Shown here piece after piece: positions 22,867 to 63,216 of a stretch of DNA of 64,000 bases; the first letter of the stretch is position 1, and every line of letters starts with the position of its first letter. The DNA lies in IMG/VR virus record IMGVR_UViG_3300020576_003495, positions 64,001 through 128,000 of that record, one strand, 5' to 3'. The notes beneath the pieces are model-generated. The model was not told where the DNA came from and made no database searches. It saw only the letters and a list, made by a program, of their open reading frames with translations. The DNA comes from a virus. Lineage: Duplodnaviria > Caudoviricetes. The position numbers were made by a program, and so were the translations under genes.

Positions 22867-23135
22867 TTTTTCGTGTAGTGGCGTGTGCAATGAAACTAAA
22901 ACAAAAACAAGACTGCGGTTCGAAAAGATATGCAAGCGTATCAATCTGTCTCCGGGGTATCCGTATAACGCCGATACAAACAAGTACGGTGGACATTTGG
23001 TGAAGCAGTCGCACTGGGAGTTCTGGCAAGAAGCCGTTTGTTATGCGAAATTGAAAGATTAGCTTGACAAACTATAAAATAGCCTTATAATAGGCACATA
23101 GTTTCAAAACAACTTTACTTTTTACGGAGAAAAAG

Positions 23136-34369: not shown

Positions 34370-35149
34370 ATGTACGCATCCATATTGAAAGAAGAACTAC
34401 GCTGGCCTAAAGGCTCCCCGATGGGCGGCAAGTTTCGCGCAGGTAACTCCCCTGTACCAGAGTCAATAGACCACTGGACGAAAAAAGATGATTCACAGGG
34501 CGGATCAAACCCCGGATTCCAAGCCTATGATGAAACAGGGCAGAAGTACTACGTCAAGTTCCCCAAAACAGCAGACCACGTTTATAACGAAGTCCTAGCA
34601 TCACACCTATACAAAGCCGCAGGGGTTCGTGTTCCCGATGTGAAGCCTATCATGTACAACGGGCATATTGGCGTTGCCTCGAAATGGACTTCGGGGATGA
34701 AAAACATGCACCGTGAGATTCGACATGTTGAAGGGGCTAAAGAAGGTTTCGCTGTGGATGCGTGGTTGTCGAATTGGGATACCGCAGGGATGGGTCACGA
34801 TAACATGCTCATGCACCCTGACGGAAAAGCCTTCCGTGTCGATGTGGGGGGTTCCATGCAGTACCGTGCCCAAGGACAACCCAAAGGTGACGTGTTTGGT
34901 GATACGGTTCCTGAAATAGATCGGATGCGGGATCAAACAAAATCCTTCAACGCCGCTCAGGTTTTTGGGGGCATGTCTGAGCAGGAAGTGGCTAATTCTG
35001 TGAAGAAGGTTGCAGCGGTTTCGGATGAGGATATTGACAAATTAGTTGCTACGTATTATAATGCGTCAACTGAAAAAAGAAGTATCTTGGCTAACAAGCT
35101 AATTGCCCGTAAGAACTATCTCATTTCGAGATACGGAAGGGGGACATAA
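34370..35149 (+). CDS. HipA/PI3-4-kinase-like kinase with N-terminal targeting-like motif
   Basis: GGSN, YYVK, NEVLA, DAWLSNWD...N, VD.GG. Confidence 0.7.
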   Translation: MYASILKEELRWPKGSPMGGKFRAGNSPVPESIDHWTKKDDSQGGSNPGFQAYDETGQKYYVKFPKTADHVYNEVLASHLYKAAGVRVPDVKPIMYNGHIGVASKWTSGMKNMHREIRHVEGAKEGFAVDAWLSNWDTAGMGHDNMLMHPDGKAFRVDVGGSMQYRAQGQPKGDVFGDTVPEIDRMRDQTKSFNAAQVFGGMSEQEVANSVKKVAAVSDEDIDKLVATYYNASTEKRSILANKLIARKNYLISRYGRGT

Positions 35150-53375: not shown

Positions 53376-53693
53376 TCAACTGCCTTTGGTGCCGTTAATC
53401 GACGCCATTATGTCGCTGTGCAGTTTTGACAGGGTATTAAGTGTCCACAGGAATACTTCGGGGTTCCTTTGATGGACTTCTTTACAGTTGGGGCAGTCAG
53501 TGCCCAGCGGAGTAACTTCAAACCCGCGTGGTTTTTCTTCATCAAGTTCCTTGAGCGCCACAGTACCACACGTATTGCATAGGCCCAAAAAGAAGTGTCC
53601 CTTGTCTTCTGACAGTCCTTTGTCCTTGGCGAAGTTTGTTACTATTTCATCGTAGCGGCTGGTCATCGTTTCTCTCTCCATAAAAGCAGTCAT
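53376..53693 (-). CDS. zinc-binding hypothetical protein (rare minus-strand gene)
   Basis: CNTC...CPNC; convergent hairpin at 53340-53361. Confidence 0.55.
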   Translation of the reverse strand: MTAFMERETMTSRYDEIVTNFAKDKGLSEDKGHFFLGLCNTCGTVALKELDEEKPRGFEVTPLGTDCPNCKEVHQRNPEVFLWTLNTLSKLHSDIMASINGTKGS

Positions 53694-53782
53694 TATAGGT
53701 TCGCACTTGTTTTTGTCAAGGCTGAGTCTTGTTATCGTGTAAGTTTAAGTGTACACTGCCGAAAAATAGCTTGGGGGCGATC

Positions 53783-56940: not shown

Positions 56941-57417
56941 ATGAGTTATATATTTGTACCCGCCCCTGAGAATTACCCCGGAACGATCTACCAGTACGGT
57001 AATAGAATTTTAGAACACCATTTAGTGTGGTGGTTGTCTACGGGGTTACTTGTTCCAGATGGTTACGTTTTGCACCATAAAGACGAAGACCCAACTAACA
57101 ATGAATTTAGTAACTTGGAGTTGATGCTTGAGGGTGACCATATCCGCCACCACAACACACAGCACACCATTGCTAGATTTGTATGCCGTAGGTGCGGAAA
57201 TACGTTTGACCGAAATACCAGAGTTATTTCTGATGGGTCAAAACATATCTATTGCTCAAAAAGGTGTTCAGCGCTCAGCACATCAGGAAGATGCCGCCTT
57301 AGCGAAGATATGAAGGAAAAAGTGCGGTTGCTTAGAATTTCTGGTGGGTCGACTAGAAGTATTTCCAGAGAGTTAGGTATTAGTCGCAACACTGTGATGA
57401 AGTATTGGGGGATATAG
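56941..57417 (+). CDS. HNH homing endonuclease
   Basis: EHHLVW, LHHKDEDPTNN..SNLE, CxxC, HTH. Confidence 0.85.
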   Translation: MSYIFVPAPENYPGTIYQYGNRILEHHLVWWLSTGLLVPDGYVLHHKDEDPTNNEFSNLELMLEGDHIRHHNTQHTIARFVCRRCGNTFDRNTRVISDGSKHIYCSKRCSALSTSGRCRLSEDMKEKVRLLRISGGSTRSISRELGISRNTVMKYWGI

Positions 57418-57928: not shown

Positions 57929-57957
57929 TTGACAAATCGGGGGAGCTTTTATATAAT
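57929..57957 (+). promoter_or_regulatory. consensus sigma70 promoter for ncRNA copy 1
   Basis: TTGACA-N17-TATAAT. Confidence 0.85.
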
Positions 57958-57968
57958 TAGTAAAACAC

Positions 57969-58311
57969 TGTTAGATGCGTGTTTTTGGAGGTGGGCTTAG
58001 AAGCAGCCATCCTTAATGAGTAGGGCAAGTGCTGTATGCGGATACACATAGGCTGAGAAGGGCATCATTCAGGCCGAAAAGTTCAATAGGGTTTTGTGTG
58101 GATTCTTAGGGAGGCTGGCGTTAGGCCAGATAGCCGAAAGACGAAGCAAAATCACGCCAAGGCAGCTTCGCAAACTGCTGAAGGAATGGGAGTAGCACTC
58201 CCTGAGAACGAATGGGCGTACAGGGCCACACAGCTAGTATCAAGGGGAAGTTGCCGGTAATCCCCACGATCCCTTTTGGCGTGACAGCACACCAAGAATA
58301 CGCATCTAACA
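57969..58311 (+). ncRNA. 23S uL11-binding-domain-mimic ncRNA, copy 1
   Basis: 20-bp closing stem; GGCTTAGAAGCAGCCATCC (H43) and GCGTGACAGCACAC (H44). Confidence 0.8.
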
Positions 58312-58326
58312 CTGTTGTAAAAAGTT

Positions 58327-58366
58327 TGGCGAGGAGGTTGTTGGTTACCAGACAGGCTCATAACCT
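58327..58366 (+). pseudogene. 5' half of a disrupted tRNA-Met(CAT)
   Basis: Acceptor strand, D-arm, CAGG-CTCATAA-CCT then breaks off. Confidence 0.75.
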
Positions 58367-58405
58367 TTTTCGCTAGTTGTGTTATGATACCCGTGGGGGT
58401 ATGCA

Positions 58406-58858
58406 ATGACACACTTACTATGTTGCAGTTGTAAAGAAAGCAAGCCTTTAGCTAGCTTTTCCAAAGACAAGAGTTCAAAGCGTGGGTACGCTAGTAAATG
58501 TAAAGACTGCCATAATACCTACGTGCGTACTGTGTGGTACCCAAAGAACAAGGATAAGCAGGTAGCGTCTGTTGCTCGTTTTAAAACAGCCAACAGACTG
58601 AAAGAAATCGCTTGGCGGCACGGTGTTCCGTTAGCGGATGTAGAAGAAGCAATAGAGCGCAGTTCTGGGGCTTGTGAAAGCTGCGGTTCCACTGTCTCTG
58701 TTGTGCTAGACCACTGCCACACCACGTCTAAAGTTAGAGGCGTCTTGTGCATGCGTTGTAATACAGTTTTAGGTAGGCTAGGGGATTCTTACGAGAGTGT
58801 TAAACAGCACATGGAGAGTTTGCTGGCCTATTTGGAAAAAAGTTTCGCGGGTGAGTGA
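58406..58858 (+). CDS. endonuclease VII-type homing endonuclease
   Basis: CESC...DHCHTTSKVRGVLCMRCN..LG. Confidence 0.85.
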   Translation: MTHLLCCSCKESKPLASFSKDKSSKRGYASKCKDCHNTYVRTVWYPKNKDKQVASVARFKTANRLKEIAWRHGVPLADVEEAIERSSGACESCGSTVSVVLDHCHTTSKVRGVLCMRCNTVLGRLGDSYESVKQHMESLLAYLEKSFAGE

Positions 58859-58923
58859 AACGTCTTACACAATGGGTTCATATCCCATTAACAGCAGGGT
58901 TAGACTCCCTGTACCCGCAACCA
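58846..58923 (+). tRNA. initiator tRNA-fMet(CAT), overlapping the endonuclease stop codon
   Basis: C1:A72 mismatch; GGG/CCC anticodon stem; CCA. Confidence 0.85.
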
Positions 58924-58925
58924 GT

Positions 58926-59052
58926 TTCTGTGGCGTAAATAACGATTTCCTCAATGCCAATGAAGTAACGTGGGTTCGAATCCCATCGGCTCGTAAGGGC
59001 TGTCGTCTAGTGGTTAGGACACTAAAAATTTCGTTGTTGCTTGTTCCCAGAA
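58926..59052 (+). ncRNA. YrlA-like Y RNA (permuted tRNA mimic)
   Basis: T-arm, loop-closed acceptor stem and D-arm inside a terminal bulged stem ending CTTGTTCC. Confidence 0.7.
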
Positions 59053-59332
59053 TTAAACAAAGGCCAGAAGCCTAAGTAGTTCCCCGAGCATACGGTAAAC
59101 GTGGGGTTCCCTTGAACAGACTGTTCTTCAACTTCTGTTCGGGGGGATCATGCGACAGTTTTACGGTGTGTGCTTTCGTGCCGGTTCTACTAGAATCAAA
59201 ATTTTATCAAAGCATAGAACCTTGGTGGGGGCTAGGAAAGCCTCAAAATCACTAAAGGTCAGCAGTTGTATTTACAGAATTACGTGGGGGCTTGTTCCTG
59301 TGTTCATAGAAGGATCACCCCAGTAGCAGATT

Positions 59333-59398
59333 TGCGTGGTGTATGGTTACCGTTACTTCTATCTTAGTGAAATCACACGGTTACCGCTTGTTCCCGCA
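59333..59398 (+). ncRNA. short Y-RNA-like hairpin
   Basis: GTGGTGT...CTTGTTCC terminal stem shared with 58926-59052. Confidence 0.55.
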
Positions 59399-59407
59399 TT
59401 TATTTAT

Positions 59408-59484
59408 TGCTTGTTAGCTCAGTCCGGCAGAGCATTGTCTTGATAAGGCACAGGTCGTCGGTTCAAATCCGACACAAGCAACCA
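59408..59484 (+). tRNA. tRNA-Ile(GAT)
   Basis: Loop TTGATAA; CCA. Confidence 0.9.
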
Positions 59485-59488
59485 AGTT

Positions 59489-59551
59489 TCGGTGGTGTTG
59501 GTTAGTCGTTCTTCTTTCGGTGAAAAATCCGACTAGCTGTTTGTTCCCCGA
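59489..59551 (+). ncRNA. short Y-RNA-like hairpin
   Basis: GTGGTGT...TTTGTTCC terminal stem. Confidence 0.55.
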
Positions 59552-59611
59552 TTAATTTCCCCAGTCTTAGTGGCGGGATGGTCTTAGGTATTTATACCCA
59601 CAGGAGTCAAC

Positions 59612-60112
59612 ATGTCCCCCGAACAGAAACAAGCCACATCCGAAGGTATTGAGAATGCTTTAGCTAGCGTACCCCCCGAGATTGTTGATGAAGCCCTACG
59701 CTTCTGGTATGCCTACGCAAAACTCCATTATCGTTTTACATCGGCACAAGTCCTCGTTTCTTTCCTTGCTCGCAAGGGCACAACACCCGGAAATGGCAAG
59801 GGTTGGCGGGATTGTTGGGGGTCGATTTGCGTGAAAGCCAAAAAGCAAGGCATCATGCAAAAAGTGGGGATCATGGTCACCACTGAGAAGCATACCCACA
59901 TGGGTCACGGTGCGTACTGGCAGTCCAAGGTTTATGAAGGTGGGGATGAGCAGTATCGAAACAGCCCCGAGCAGGATTTGAAGCGTGCGCTGTACATGCG
60001 CTGGCTCAAGAAGGATTATGAGAATCTGCGTGACTACACGGATGACGTGTTTTCGATGGGGGTCAAGTTTGCCCTTGAGAACAAAGAGTACGTTGCGGGG
60101 ATAAAAATTTAA
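59612..60112 (+). CDS. hypothetical protein within the tRNA array
   Basis: AGGAG RBS. Confidence 0.6.
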   Translation: MSPEQKQATSEGIENALASVPPEIVDEALRFWYAYAKLHYRFTSAQVLVSFLARKGTTPGNGKGWRDCWGSICVKAKKQGIMQKVGIMVTTEKHTHMGHGAYWQSKVYEGGDEQYRNSPEQDLKRALYMRWLKKDYENLRDYTDDVFSMGVKFALENKEYVAGIKI

Positions 60113-60148
60113 CTGTGTGTGCTAACGTACAGACAGGTAGTTTCAACT

Positions 60149-60223
60149 GTGTCCCTGACAGAGAGGCCGATGTGCAGGATTGCAAACCCTGATAGCCCGG
60201 TTCAATTCCGGGGGGACACTCCA
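60149..60223 (+). tRNA. tRNA-Cys(GCA)
   Basis: Loop TTGCAAA; U73; CCA. Confidence 0.9.
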
Positions 60224-60381
60224 AGTTACGTAGCATCACGGAAGGAACGTGCGTGGCCCACGAGGTCGATGGGGTACGGTCAGTTTTCATGTGGGGGTCG
60301 ACGCCCTAACATGCAAAGCTTAATGCTGTGCTGACAAGAAGGTGAGCAGGGCGCAACCCTGTAAGACCTTCCTACGTATTT

Positions 60382-60459
60382 GCGCTCTGAGCTAGTCTGG
60401 TGATTCAGCGACAGTTTGAAGAACTGTAGAACTAGGTTCGATTCCTAGAGGGTGCACCA
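60382..60459 (+). tRNA. tRNA-Phe(GAA)
   Basis: ACAGT-TTGAAGA-ACTGT. Confidence 0.88.
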
Positions 60460-60478
60460 AGATTACTGTATAGTCGAG

Positions 60479-60553
60479 TGGGGTGATATGCAATGGATGC
60501 ATACTTGGCTTTGAACCAAGGTTAGTCAGGTTCGATTCCTACCACCCCTTCCA
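60479..60553 (+). tRNA. tRNA-Gln(TTG)
   Basis: CTTGG-CTTTGAA-CCAAG. Confidence 0.85.
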
Positions 60554-60559
60554 GTTTTT

Positions 60560-60643
60560 AGAGAGATGAGCTTTGGAAGCAAACTATCTTGGAAAGGTAG
60601 TCCATCCGAAAGGGTGACAGTTCGATTCTGTATCTCTCTGCCA
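60560..60643 (+). tRNA. tRNA-Ser(GGA)
   Basis: Loop TTGGAAA, long variable arm. Confidence 0.85.
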
Positions 60644-60651
60644 TGTTTTAA

Positions 60652-60739
60652 GGTTAGGTGCGCGAGTGGCTAAAGCGTCTTGTTTGCTAAACAATGAGTC
60701 CGAAAGGGCACTAGGGTTCGAACCCCTACCTAACCGCCA
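60652..60739 (+). tRNA. tRNA-Ser(GCT)
   Basis: Loop TTGCTAA, long variable arm. Confidence 0.88.
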
Positions 60740-60745
60740 TGTTAC

Positions 60746-60822
60746 GCCGGGTTGACGGAATTGGCATACGTGCAAGTTTCAAAAACTTGATCTTGCGGGT
60801 TCGACTCCCGCACCCGGCACCA
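60746..60822 (+). tRNA. tRNA-Leu(CAA), short variable loop
   Basis: CAAGT-TTCAAAA-ACTTG. Confidence 0.88.
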
Positions 60823-60828
60823 AGTTTT

Positions 60829-60905
60829 GCCCTTGTGGTGGAATAGGCATACACACGCGCTTGAGGGGTGCGGTTCTGTCGGTTCGAGTCCGACCAAGGG
60901 TACCA
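60829..60905 (+). tRNA. tRNA-Leu(GAG), short variable loop
   Basis: CGCGC-TTGAGGG-GTGCG. Confidence 0.88.
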
Positions 60906-60911
60906 GTCTAT

Positions 60912-60982
60912 GCCCTCACTATCGAATAGCATCAGGTTTCCTAAACCAGATTGTGACAGTTAAACTCTGTCTGAGGGCACCA
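60912..60982 (+). tRNA. tRNA-Arg(CCT), reduced D-arm
   Basis: Loop TTCCTAA; GCCCTCA/TGAGGGC; CCA. Confidence 0.75.
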
Positions 60983-60983
60983 T

Positions 60984-61054
60984 ACCCCGACTGTGGGACA
61001 GATTTTGGCCTTCTAAGCCAAAAATGGGAGGTTCGAAACCTTCTCGGGGTGCCA
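60984..61054 (+). tRNA. tRNA-Arg(TCT), reduced D-arm
   Basis: TTGGC-CTTCTAA-GCCAA; CCA. Confidence 0.78.
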
Positions 61055-61060
61055 AGTTTT

Positions 61061-61134
61061 GCGGATGTAGCTTAGTGATAAAGCGCTTGTTTGCCAAGCA
61101 AGATACGCGAGTTTGATTCTCGTCTTCCGCTCCA
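61061..61134 (+). tRNA. tRNA-Gly(GCC)
   Basis: Loop TTGCCAA; U73. Confidence 0.9.
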
Positions 61135-61140
61135 AGTTTC

Positions 61141-61215
61141 GCCCTTGTAGCACAGTGGCAGTGCACTCGCTTGGTAAGCGAGAGGTCGTGGGTTCGATTC
61201 CGACCAAGGGCACCA
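61141..61215 (+). tRNA. tRNA-Thr(GGT)
   Basis: CTCGC-TTGGTAA-GCGAG. Confidence 0.9.
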
Positions 61216-61221
61216 AGTTTC

Positions 61222-61296
61222 GCCCTTTTAGCGCAGTGATAGAGCAATCGTTTCGTAAGCGATAGGTCGTCTGTTTGATTCAGACAAGGGGCACCA
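61222..61296 (+). tRNA. tRNA-Thr(CGT)
   Basis: ATCGT-TTCGTAA-GCGAT. Confidence 0.88.
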
Positions 61297-61306
61297 GAGT
61301 TTTAAT

Positions 61307-61383
61307 GGGACGTTAGCTCAGTCGGTAGTAGCACTCGCCTCTTAAGCGATAGGTCGTCAGTTCGATCCTGACACGTCCTACCA
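61307..61383 (+). tRNA. tRNA-Lys(CTT)
   Basis: Loop CTCTTAA. Confidence 0.9.
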
Positions 61384-61445
61384 TCACATACTCCTTGACA
61401 AACTGTGGGGATTGGATTATCATTACTCCATAGTCAATCAACGGA

Positions 61446-61745
61446 GTGATGATCATGTGGAATATAGTAATCGAAGGTAGTCAGGAAGTGTACGTTCGCC
61501 ATAATAATGAAATCGTGGCCCGGTTCAAGTACGCATCCCCCAAGGCCAGTGCCAAGCATTTTGTGAAGTTTCTGAAGGCGAACTACAGCCCCGAAGAATA
61601 CTTTGCCAAGCGCAAGTTGGGCATCCCGCCTTTGCGTATCCTTCATCAAAAGGGGTACGTCAGCTACAACGTTGAACGTGCCGACAAGGAAGCTATTGCG
61701 GGGGCTAAGAAGGTTTGGGCGATGTATGATCGTCTGAGTTTTTAA
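61446..61745 (+). CDS. hypothetical protein within the tRNA array
   Basis: Own TTGACA-N17-TATCAT promoter; GGAG RBS. Confidence 0.6.
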   Translation: MMIMWNIVIEGSQEVYVRHNNEIVARFKYASPKASAKHFVKFLKANYSPEEYFAKRKLGIPPLRILHQKGYVSYNVERADKEAIAGAKKVWAMYDRLSF

Positions 61746-61751
61746 AGTTTC

Positions 61752-62087
61752 GGTGTTCGTAGAGGGTGGGCTTAGAAGCAGCCATCCCTTAAAGAGTAGG
61801 ACAAGTGCTGTATGCAGGTACACATAGGCAGTTTAAGGGCATAGTTAACTGGCCGAAAAGTTCAATAGGGTTTGTGTGGATTCTTAGAACGGCTTGGGGT
61901 CTGGACTCCAAGTACCAATCGAAAGACGAAGCAAATCACGCCAAGGCAGTCTCGCAAACTGCTGAAGGAATGGGGGTTGCACCCACTGAGAGCGAATGGC
62001 ATACAGAGCCACACGGCAAGTATCAATGGAAGGCAGAGATGCTAAATCCAACGATTCCTTTTAGCGTAGTAGCACACTACGAACACC
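61752..62087 (+). ncRNA. 23S uL11-binding-domain-mimic ncRNA, copy 2
   Basis: GGTGTTCGTAG/CTACGAACACC closing stem; H43 and H44 motifs; paralogous insert. Confidence 0.8.
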
Positions 62088-62808: not shown

Positions 62809-63216
62809 ATGAAGAATGGTGAGTATACTTTAGTCATAGCGCCTGAAGGGTATCCGGGCAAGAGGTACCGTGGTCGCTACTGCTATGAACATCATTTGGT
62901 TTGGTGGTTGAATACAGGTGAAGTCGTACTTGCTGGCGAGTTGATTCACCACAAAGATGAGGACAAGCGCAATAACGTTTTCCTTAACCTTGAGAAAATG
63001 TCAAAGACTTCTCATGATGCACACCACAGTAACCTACCGATTAAGTCGCCTGTTCTGGTGTCTCTTTTTTGTTTTTGGTGCGGTTCTGCTTTCACCTTGA
63101 GGAAGCATGTTTACGTGTGCAGGGTTAGAGCTAACGGGCATGCTGATGTGTGTTGTGGAAGGTCGTGCCAAGTCAAGAAGCAGCAGCATGACAAAAAAGT
63201 TAAAAAGGAAAATTAA
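62809..63216 (+). CDS. HNH homing endonuclease (paralogue of 56941..57417)
   Basis: AP..YPG..Y...EHHLVWW...HHKDEDKRNN..NLE. Confidence 0.85.
   Translation: MKNGEYTLVIAPEGYPGKRYRGRYCYEHHLVWWLNTGEVVLAGELIHHKDEDKRNNVFLNLEKMSKTSHDAHHSNLPIKSPVLVSLFCFWCGSAFTLRKHVYVCRVRANGHADVCCGRSCQVKKQQHDKKVKKEN

Follow-up and report, generated by a model that had tools for sequence, protein, structure and literature searches.

A large family of phage RNAs that probably imitates the uL11-binding site of the ribosome

What would a phage gain from keeping, among its tRNA genes, two free-standing copies of a piece of the large ribosomal RNA? The question is raised by a 64,000-nt stretch of viral DNA (hereafter the window; positions 64,001 to 128,000 of the IMG/VR record IMGVR_UViG_3300020576_003495), which comes from an uncultured phage whose 178-kb record is ~91% complete by estimate. 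An earlier note, made from the letters of the window alone, had described two RNAs there, each of which rebuilds the uL11-binding domain of 23S rRNA around a structured insert, and had not recognised them as a described family. That domain, the GTPase-associated centre (GAC), consists of the tip of helix 42 (H42), H43 and H44. On the ribosome it contacts translational GTPases, RelA and the elbow of the incoming tRNA, and as a 58-nt fragment it binds uL11 and thiostrepton. Both copies belong to a large, covarying family of phage RNAs. We found no description of this family, and its sequence conservation suggests that it probably imitates the uL11-binding site of the ribosome while standing off the ribosome.

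Two self-closed copies of a 23S rRNA domain

The two RNAs lie where the earlier note had placed them, and the 5' and 3' motifs that it quoted are exact (Table 1). They are paralogous, with 86% identity across ~340 nt in a pairwise alignment; the 20-mer GGGCTTAGAAGCAGCCATCC occurs exactly twice in the window against 0.00 expected occurrences. Because the indels between the copies measure 1, 2, 1, 4, 3, 1, 1 and 2 nt and the substitutions are spread evenly across the codon phases (12/18/15), we regard both copies as non-coding. Coding potential was rejected for both on these grounds together with the list of open reading frames (ORFs). Each copy is closed by a perfect stem, of 20 bp in copy 1 and 11 bp in copy 2, and the sequences of the two stems are unrelated to each other, which agrees with the original description of them as different and fully paired.

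Set against nt 1051-1108 of the Escherichia coli 23S rRNA (rrlH), the 5' segment of each copy rebuilds positions 1055-1090 and the 3' segment positions 1091-1104 (H43/H44). The claimed resemblance to H43-H44 is also borne out by the Rfam models of large-subunit (LSU) rRNA, whose matches cover the H43 part only: the H43 part of the copy is identical to the archaeal model at 25 of 25 positions, and copy 2 matches the bacterial model, at model positions 1098-1144 only, with 22.4 bits. Rfam searches at gathering score and at E up to 10, performed with the window and with copy 1 alone, returned tRNAs and a partial LSU match only; this is the outcome that the earlier note had anticipated, with no full-length match to an existing family. 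A 23S rRNA gene or fragment (LSU_rRNA_bacteria) was rejected as the identity of the copies, the 22.4 bits lying below the cut-off of 50 and the flanks being a promoter, tRNAs and phage genes. One point of the original description has to be corrected: the insert, which had been assigned to the H43/H44 junction, sits within the 5' strand of H44, between the equivalents of 1090 and 1091, and its 3' end is a UUUG linker.

The structure of the insert was modelled by hand on the two-copy alignment, with 50 pairs in 9 helices. All 50 pairs are formed in both copies, with five two-sided changes, two one-sided changes and none broken, whereas slid controls gave 33-47% pairing and no compensatory changes. 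The same alignment bears out all three compensatory insert helices and the invariant blocks that had been named before; these long blocks are single-stranded and do not differ between the copies. Seven G-U pairs identify the + strand as the RNA strand. An extra hairpin (~58117-58145 in copy 1) forms in both copies, with different length and sequence in each. The module near the 3' end of the insert combines a helix and a short hairpin, capped by a tetraloop (GAGA in copy 2), with AGUA and GA motifs and a UAA bulge. Unconstrained minimum-free-energy folds disagreed with each other between the copies and with the comparative model, and they were not relied on.

The family and its distribution

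A scan of the IMG/VR viral contigs with the pattern GCTTAGAAGCAGCCATC-N(1-2)-TTAA-N-GAGT returned 88 stretches, none of which continues as 23S rRNA, and the family-specific 3' motif TTTGGCGTAAYAGCACAC gave at least 119 matches in viral contigs. After parsing of both scan sets, 100 complete unique elements were obtained. All of them are built alike: the 5' strand of the closing stem is followed by GGA-NGUNG-GCUUAGAAGCAGCCAUC-N-UUUAAAGAGU, the insert, the UUUG linker, GCGUAAYAGCAC-AC and the 3' strand of the closing stem. The inserts range from 45 to >900 nt, differ between phages and are closed by a basal helix of 3-4 bp. In the family alignment the closing stem and the basal helix are free to vary in sequence while their pairing is kept. 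Within the ribosomal part, pair 1058:1080 is found as UA (33), GC (31), AU (26) and CG (4), and pair 1082:1086 as UA (60), CG (17) and AU (9).

Covariation among these homologues was measured on 37 aligned members, with 500 shuffles and slid partners as controls. Paired cells reached 96.2% (72.2% when shuffled), and the covariation score was 0.584 compared with 0.146 for the shuffled alignments, none of which attained the observed value, and 0.08-0.17 with slid partners. A covariance model, R1, was trained on 37 elements of other phages, the window being left out. It recognised copy 2 with 83.7 bits (E 1.6e-24) and copy 1 with 63.7 bits (E 1.7e-18), both over the full length of the model (positions 1-163). 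No match beyond these two was found by R1 in the 178-kb genome, and neither R1 nor sequence searches of that genome revealed a third copy or broken fragments. Both copies bear the family signature in full: a stem of their own, GGA-NGUNG-GCUUAGAAGCAGCCAUC-N, G1058:C1080, GAGU, a basal helix with its linker (AGGG/CCCU with UUUG in copy 1, AGGA/UCCU with UUUA in copy 2), GCGUNNNAGCAC-AC and A at 1101. What had been proposed from two copies, a stand-alone RNA that rebuilds the uL11-binding domain around a structured insert, is now strongly supported by at least 100 elements and their covariation. Of the two copies, only the insert is peculiar to the source phage.

When R1 was run against E. coli 23S rRNA, its sole match was nt 1048-1111 (53.1 bits); the insert subtree of the model stayed empty and the UUUG was deleted. 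This alignment defines the family as a GAC with an insertion inside H44 between 1090 and 1091. The phage RNAs are near-identical to the bacterial GAC (H42 tip, H43 and H44; E. coli 1051-1108) over 1059-1090 and 1091-1100. They have the same helices, the same covarying pairs 1058:1080 and 1082:1086, and the same fold-building bases U1060, U1066, G1071, C1072, A1073, A1088, G1091-C1100 and C1092-G1099. Unlike the GAC of 23S rRNA, they are free-standing, closed by their own stem and encoded in phage tRNA arrays; they carry the insert and the UUUG linker between 1090 and 1091 as well as A instead of U at 1101, conserve A1067 in only 78% of the family, and include no further 23S sequence. As a side observation, in the viral contigs L113, L132, L146, L151, L164 and L183 the insertion apparently occupies a second site outside H44, on the 3' strand of H43 directly behind GCCA (~1077).

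The elements keep company with tRNA genes: of 50 unique elements, 32 have a tRNA no more than 500 nt away, often at 1-20 nt, and every tRNA in those loci is on the strand of the element. In pf16, a cultured Pseudomonas phage, tRNA-Asn and tRNA-Pro are separated by a gap without annotation, which the element takes up. Other cultured carriers are UNO-G1W1, Milchi, Astolliot, Aeromonas phage 4_4572, GAP32 (Cronobacter), CBB (Pectobacterium), Serratia BF, the Erwinia pEa_SNUABM phages, XacN1 (Xanthomonas), XaC1, XbC2 and Paenibacillus Pd_22F. The locus is either unannotated or labelled 'hypothetical protein' in all of them. These carriers were found only with the ~45-nt core; blastn of a whole copy against cultured phages gave no matches. 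Four of five large complete phage genomes hold a single element, which makes the two copies of the source phage unusual. The host range is broad, from Paenibacillus to Pseudomonas, and fits a universal target. The signature GAGU, UUUG and A1101 is constant whatever the host, which points to spread among phages rather than to rDNA taken up repeatedly from hosts. In 185,579 prokaryote species genomes the 3' motif was found only 44 times, mostly on contigs of metagenome-assembled genomes with tRNA arrays; none of these 44 matches lies within an rRNA gene or represents a cellular 23S gene with such an insertion.

The search for relatives of the insert had a different outcome from that for the GAC plan, and none were detected in the viral or metagenome collections. 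Exact insert blocks gave no matches in one scan of the viral contigs and two chance matches in another, and blastn of the insert against all collected family loci returned nothing. Metagenome scans gave no matches in one case and, in another, three chance matches in a purine-rich coding region, none of which fits R1. The layout of the 3' module of the insert is that of a conserved module present in 27 of the 100 family members, whose two helices covary. This shared module (for example in L108, L141, L144, L173 and L010) reads ...GAAGUAG..N-CACCCC-(tetraloop hairpin)-GGUAAGG-N..UGAAU.., and its AGUA/GAA strand pair resembles a loop-E or bulged-G motif.

The insert also offers an alternative fold. 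Its strand GUGCUGUAUGC pairs either with an H44-like segment of the insert (GCGUACAGGGC / GCAUACAGAGC, helix P2) or with the real H44 strand. Three of three H44-loop differences between the copies preserve the masking pairing, but the complementarity is only marginally above chance (z -2.4 and -1.9 in the window copies, p ~0.03 by shuffling). Such pairing was rejected as a trait of the family, for which the median z is 0.26. It could be a conformational switch or chance.

Full-text literature searches yielded no description of the family, Rfam 15 has none, and the genome paper of XacN1 does not mention the element, all of which agrees with the claim that the family had not been described. Several known RNA classes were considered and rejected. 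Leaders of ribosomal-protein operons (L10_leader, L1/L11 operon leader) likewise imitate, off the ribosome, the site of a ribosomal protein on rRNA. However, they are cis-regulatory, cellular, located upstream of ribosomal-protein genes and loosely rRNA-like, whereas the phage RNA is self-closed, stable, placed in tRNA arrays and almost identical to rRNA; no such leader matched in Rfam at E up to 10, and the phage has no L11 gene. A group I intron in an rRNA gene was dismissed, as no Intron_gpI match appeared at E up to 10, the 'exons' total ~50 nt and are closed on themselves, and family inserts go down to 45 nt. GOLLD and ROOL are also phage-borne, tRNA-adjacent, large, ornate and of unknown function, but they contain no copy of an rRNA domain and have no sequence or structure match to the phage GAC RNAs; neither these nor Y RNA-like models of Rfam matched either copy.

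Promoters and surroundings of the two RNAs

The positions of the two RNAs, their parts and the features next to them are collected in Table 1. The consensus promoter previously noted before copy 1 is a perfect sigma-70 site. It ends 11 nt upstream of the copy, and the predicted start lies a few nucleotides ahead of the closing stem. Perfect TTGACA-N16-18-TATAAT sites number four in the window compared with 0.01 expected by chance, and for this reason we take them to be real signals. Besides the one of copy 1, they lie at 23064-23091 and 35034-35062 on the + strand and at 53692-53719 on the - strand, and all four start with TTGACAAA. Evidently, this phage depends on very strong promoters of the host type. 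No terminator was predicted between copy 1 and the genes downstream.

Table 1. Positions of the two RNA copies, their parts and adjacent features in the window
Feature	Positions	Strand	Remarks
Sigma-70 promoter 5' of copy 1	57929..57957	+	TTGACA, 17 nt, TATAAT; 12/12 consensus
Copy 1, putative GAC-mimic RNA	57969..58311	+	343 nt
Copy 1 closing stem	57969..57988 with 58292..58311	+	20 bp, 2 of them G-U; replaces the H42 tip
Copy 1 GAC 5' segment	57987..58021	+	23S 1055-1090: H43 with A1067 loop, UUAAU turn, GAGU
Copy 1 insert	58022..58278	+	257 nt; basal helix AGGG/CCCU; P2, P2a, P2b, P5-P9; ends in UUUG linker
Copy 1 GAC 3' segment	58279..58292	+	23S 1091-1104; H44 loop GUGACA, G at 1095
Copy 1 H44-masking strands	58022-58039 with 58279-58290		
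Endonuclease VII-like gene, just 3' of copy 1	58406..58858	+	phrog_2633, E 8.6e-28; given as context, not as part of the RNA
Sigma-70 promoter 5' of 99-aa ORF and copy 2	61395..61423	+	11/12 consensus; taken to drive the ORF
99-aa ORF directly preceding copy 2	61446..61745	+	from the ORF list
Copy 2, putative GAC-mimic RNA	61752..62087	+	336 nt
Copy 2 closing stem	61752..61762 with 62077..62087	+	11 bp
Copy 2 GAC 5' segment	61762..61797	+	23S 1055-1090; pairs G1057:C1081, U1082:A1086
Copy 2 insert	61798..62063	+	266 nt; basal helix AGGA/UCCU; GAGA-capped hairpin with UAAA bulge near 3' end
Copy 2 GAC 3' segment	62064..62077	+	H44 loop GUAGUA
Copy 2 H44-masking strands	61798-61815 with 62064-62075		

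Both copies lie within a same-strand tRNA array at 55.7-64 kb of the window, which comprises 26 tRNA genes, all of the window's tRNAs being on the + strand, with HNH and endonuclease VII genes between them. These nuclease genes (58406-58858, 56941-57417 and 62809-63216) stand between stable-RNA genes. Since they are interleaved in this way and copy 1 stands directly before an endonuclease VII gene, a homing-nuclease cassette may have brought in the second RNA copy. The phage has no close cultured relatives; its helicase reaches at best 36% identity, in siphoviruses of Vibrio, Stenotrophomonas and Rhodobacter.

Other parts of the array also hold unusual sequences. The stretch 58920-59600 is non-coding. 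It weakly resembles YrlA (Y RNA) at 58953-59044, with 27.5 bits against a cut-off of 69, contains a tRNA-like fragment at 58929-58994, and repeats a motif, CTTGTTCCC, near 59040, 59295, 59390 and 59545. Rfam places a tRNA at 60984-61051 (30.6 bits) that is not in the ARAGORN list, and the preceding stretch 60910-60980, which ends in ...GAGGGCACCA, may be another unusual or broken tRNA.

A possible uL11 decoy and its alternatives

The reading that we tentatively favour, with a probability of roughly 0.45, is that of a stable phage RNA with a GAC fold that would be bound off the ribosome by a host factor, most likely uL11. Each copy would be a stable non-coding RNA made from the transcription units of the tRNA array, copy 1 from its own perfect host-type promoter and copy 2 behind the small ORF. 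The ends of the RNA would join in the closing stem and carry the GAC copy (H43/1067 loop, 1082-1086 turn, H44/1095 loop), and the ~260-nt insert would exit H44 between 1090 and 1091 and form a domain of its own with several helices. Host uL11 would bind the folded domain through its C-terminal domain (CTD). The RNA would thereby be a uL11 sink that alters, during infection, the composition of host ribosomes as well as processes that depend on uL11, among them the activation of RelA. The insert would be an accessory domain specific to the lineage, with a possible role in stabilising or gating the mimic. The proposed logic is that of 6S RNA, which mimics an open promoter, and of phage anti-CRISPR RNAs, which mimic CRISPR repeats: an RNA imitates the nucleic-acid ligand of a host protein and titrates the protein. 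The imitated molecule differs, and the decoy action of the phage GAC RNA is one that we infer.

An isolated 58-nt GAC fragment of 23S rRNA binds L11, and the nucleotides at the interface with the L11 CTD are 1058-1060, 1062-1065, 1075-1083 and 1088 (PMC1802607). Across the family these interface positions are 89-100% conserved or covarying, and the insert emerges outside the interface. In a set not selected on H43, the fold-building U1066, G1071, C1072 and A1073 are 98-100% conserved and A1095 in the H44 loop is A in 94%; G1068 stands at 72%, and A1067, the exposed contact of factors and thiostrepton, at the 78% given above. The loose conservation of A1067 speaks for a partner that recognises the domain by its fold, as the CTD of uL11 would, rather than for mimicry of the A1067 factor contact. 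No protein gene recurs beside the elements (the largest cluster accounts for 6 of 100), and no homologue of L11, RelA/SpoT or Ro60 (TROVE) was found in the source phage, so that a host partner is likely.

Several points weigh against a uL11 sink. Copy 1 has G at 1095, and its 1081-1086 turn (UUAAU) is one nucleotide shorter than usual. Binding of the uL11 CTD should not require A1095, and yet this base is 94% conserved. By nearest-neighbour energies, which leave out the tertiary structure of the GAC, the H44-masked fold is 12-22 kcal/mol more stable than the GAC-intact fold in both copies, and the mimic may therefore need tertiary or protein stabilisation. Finally, such a sponge might not outcompete ribosomes for uL11.

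It seems somewhat unlikely to us that the RNA instead acts as a substrate decoy that would soak up enzymes directed at the GAC, be they host defences or competitor toxins (such as rRNA ADP-ribosyltransferases, methyltransferases or nucleases), and so spare the ribosomes working on phage mRNAs. At least one toxin family does attack this site, as Tre23 ADP-ribosylates H44 of the GAC with a minimal fragment of 1043-1123 (PMC8661411). The strong conservation of A1095 fits such a role, as do the strong early-type promoter and the retention of both loops although binding of the uL11 CTD mainly needs the fold. Stoichiometric decoys are, however, poor against enzymes, A1067 is loosely conserved, and the wide host range demands an equally wide toxin. 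To our knowledge, no anti-phage defence targets H43/H44.

We find it doubtful that the GAC module is a mere handle, perhaps bound by uL11, which stabilises or presents an insert with a lineage-specific function. The phage-specific inserts of widely varying length, the changes between the paralogues of the source phage that disrupt none of the modelled pairs, the long invariant single-stranded blocks and the covarying 3' module of 27 elements would all be expected of a functional insert, but the sole universally conserved part is the GAC, and inserts of 45-60 nt are too small for much separate function.

The alternative fold has suggested an extension of the uL11 decoy that we consider still more doubtful, in which the RNAs would be gated uL11 sponges whose insert strand GUGCUGUAUGC masks or exposes H44 of the mimic. 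The decoy would then be active only under certain conditions or upon protein binding. Once exposed, the mimic would strip exchangeable uL11 from host ribosomes and blunt RelA-dependent stringent control, and the phage's own tRNA set would keep translation running.

An RNA that mimics the factor-binding face of the ribosome, directly binding translational GTPases, RelA or the tRNA elbow, is improbable. The GAC contacts such ligands on the ribosome and the RNA is located among tRNA genes, yet the sarcin-ricin loop, the stalk and the A site, on which these ligands also depend, are all missing from the RNA; the closing stems are plain helices without the uL10-binding kink-turn of H42, and among the loop bases A1067, the main contact of factors and tRNA, is conserved least. 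A leader acting in cis, which would sense free uL11 and control the endonuclease VII gene and the tRNAs downstream, is more improbable again: copy 1 does lie between a promoter and downstream genes without a predicted terminator, and the H44-masking fold is available to both copies, but most members have tRNAs 1-20 nt away on their flanks and share no downstream gene consistently, and long closing stems are typical of stable RNAs that are excised. A piece of host rDNA captured without any function, as the near-identity to rRNA over 40 nt might suggest, can practically be dismissed, being contradicted by the covariation across 100 elements, by the host-independent GAGU, UUUG linker and A1101 (not U), by the location of all 44 genome matches outside rRNA genes and by two diverged copies that both preserve every pair.

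Annotation pipelines and Rfam lack this family. Its members would be a source of natural, self-folding GAC variants with large insertions for RNA structural biology, and the cultured carriers (among them pf16, GAP32, CBB, XacN1 and Pd_22F) make the uL11 decoy directly testable. If that reading is true, phages of many bacterial phyla would make a free-standing copy of a functional rRNA domain. This would be a previously unrecognised mode of interference with the host translation apparatus or its surveillance, to be ranked beside phage tRNAs, tmRNAs and phage-encoded ribosomal proteins.

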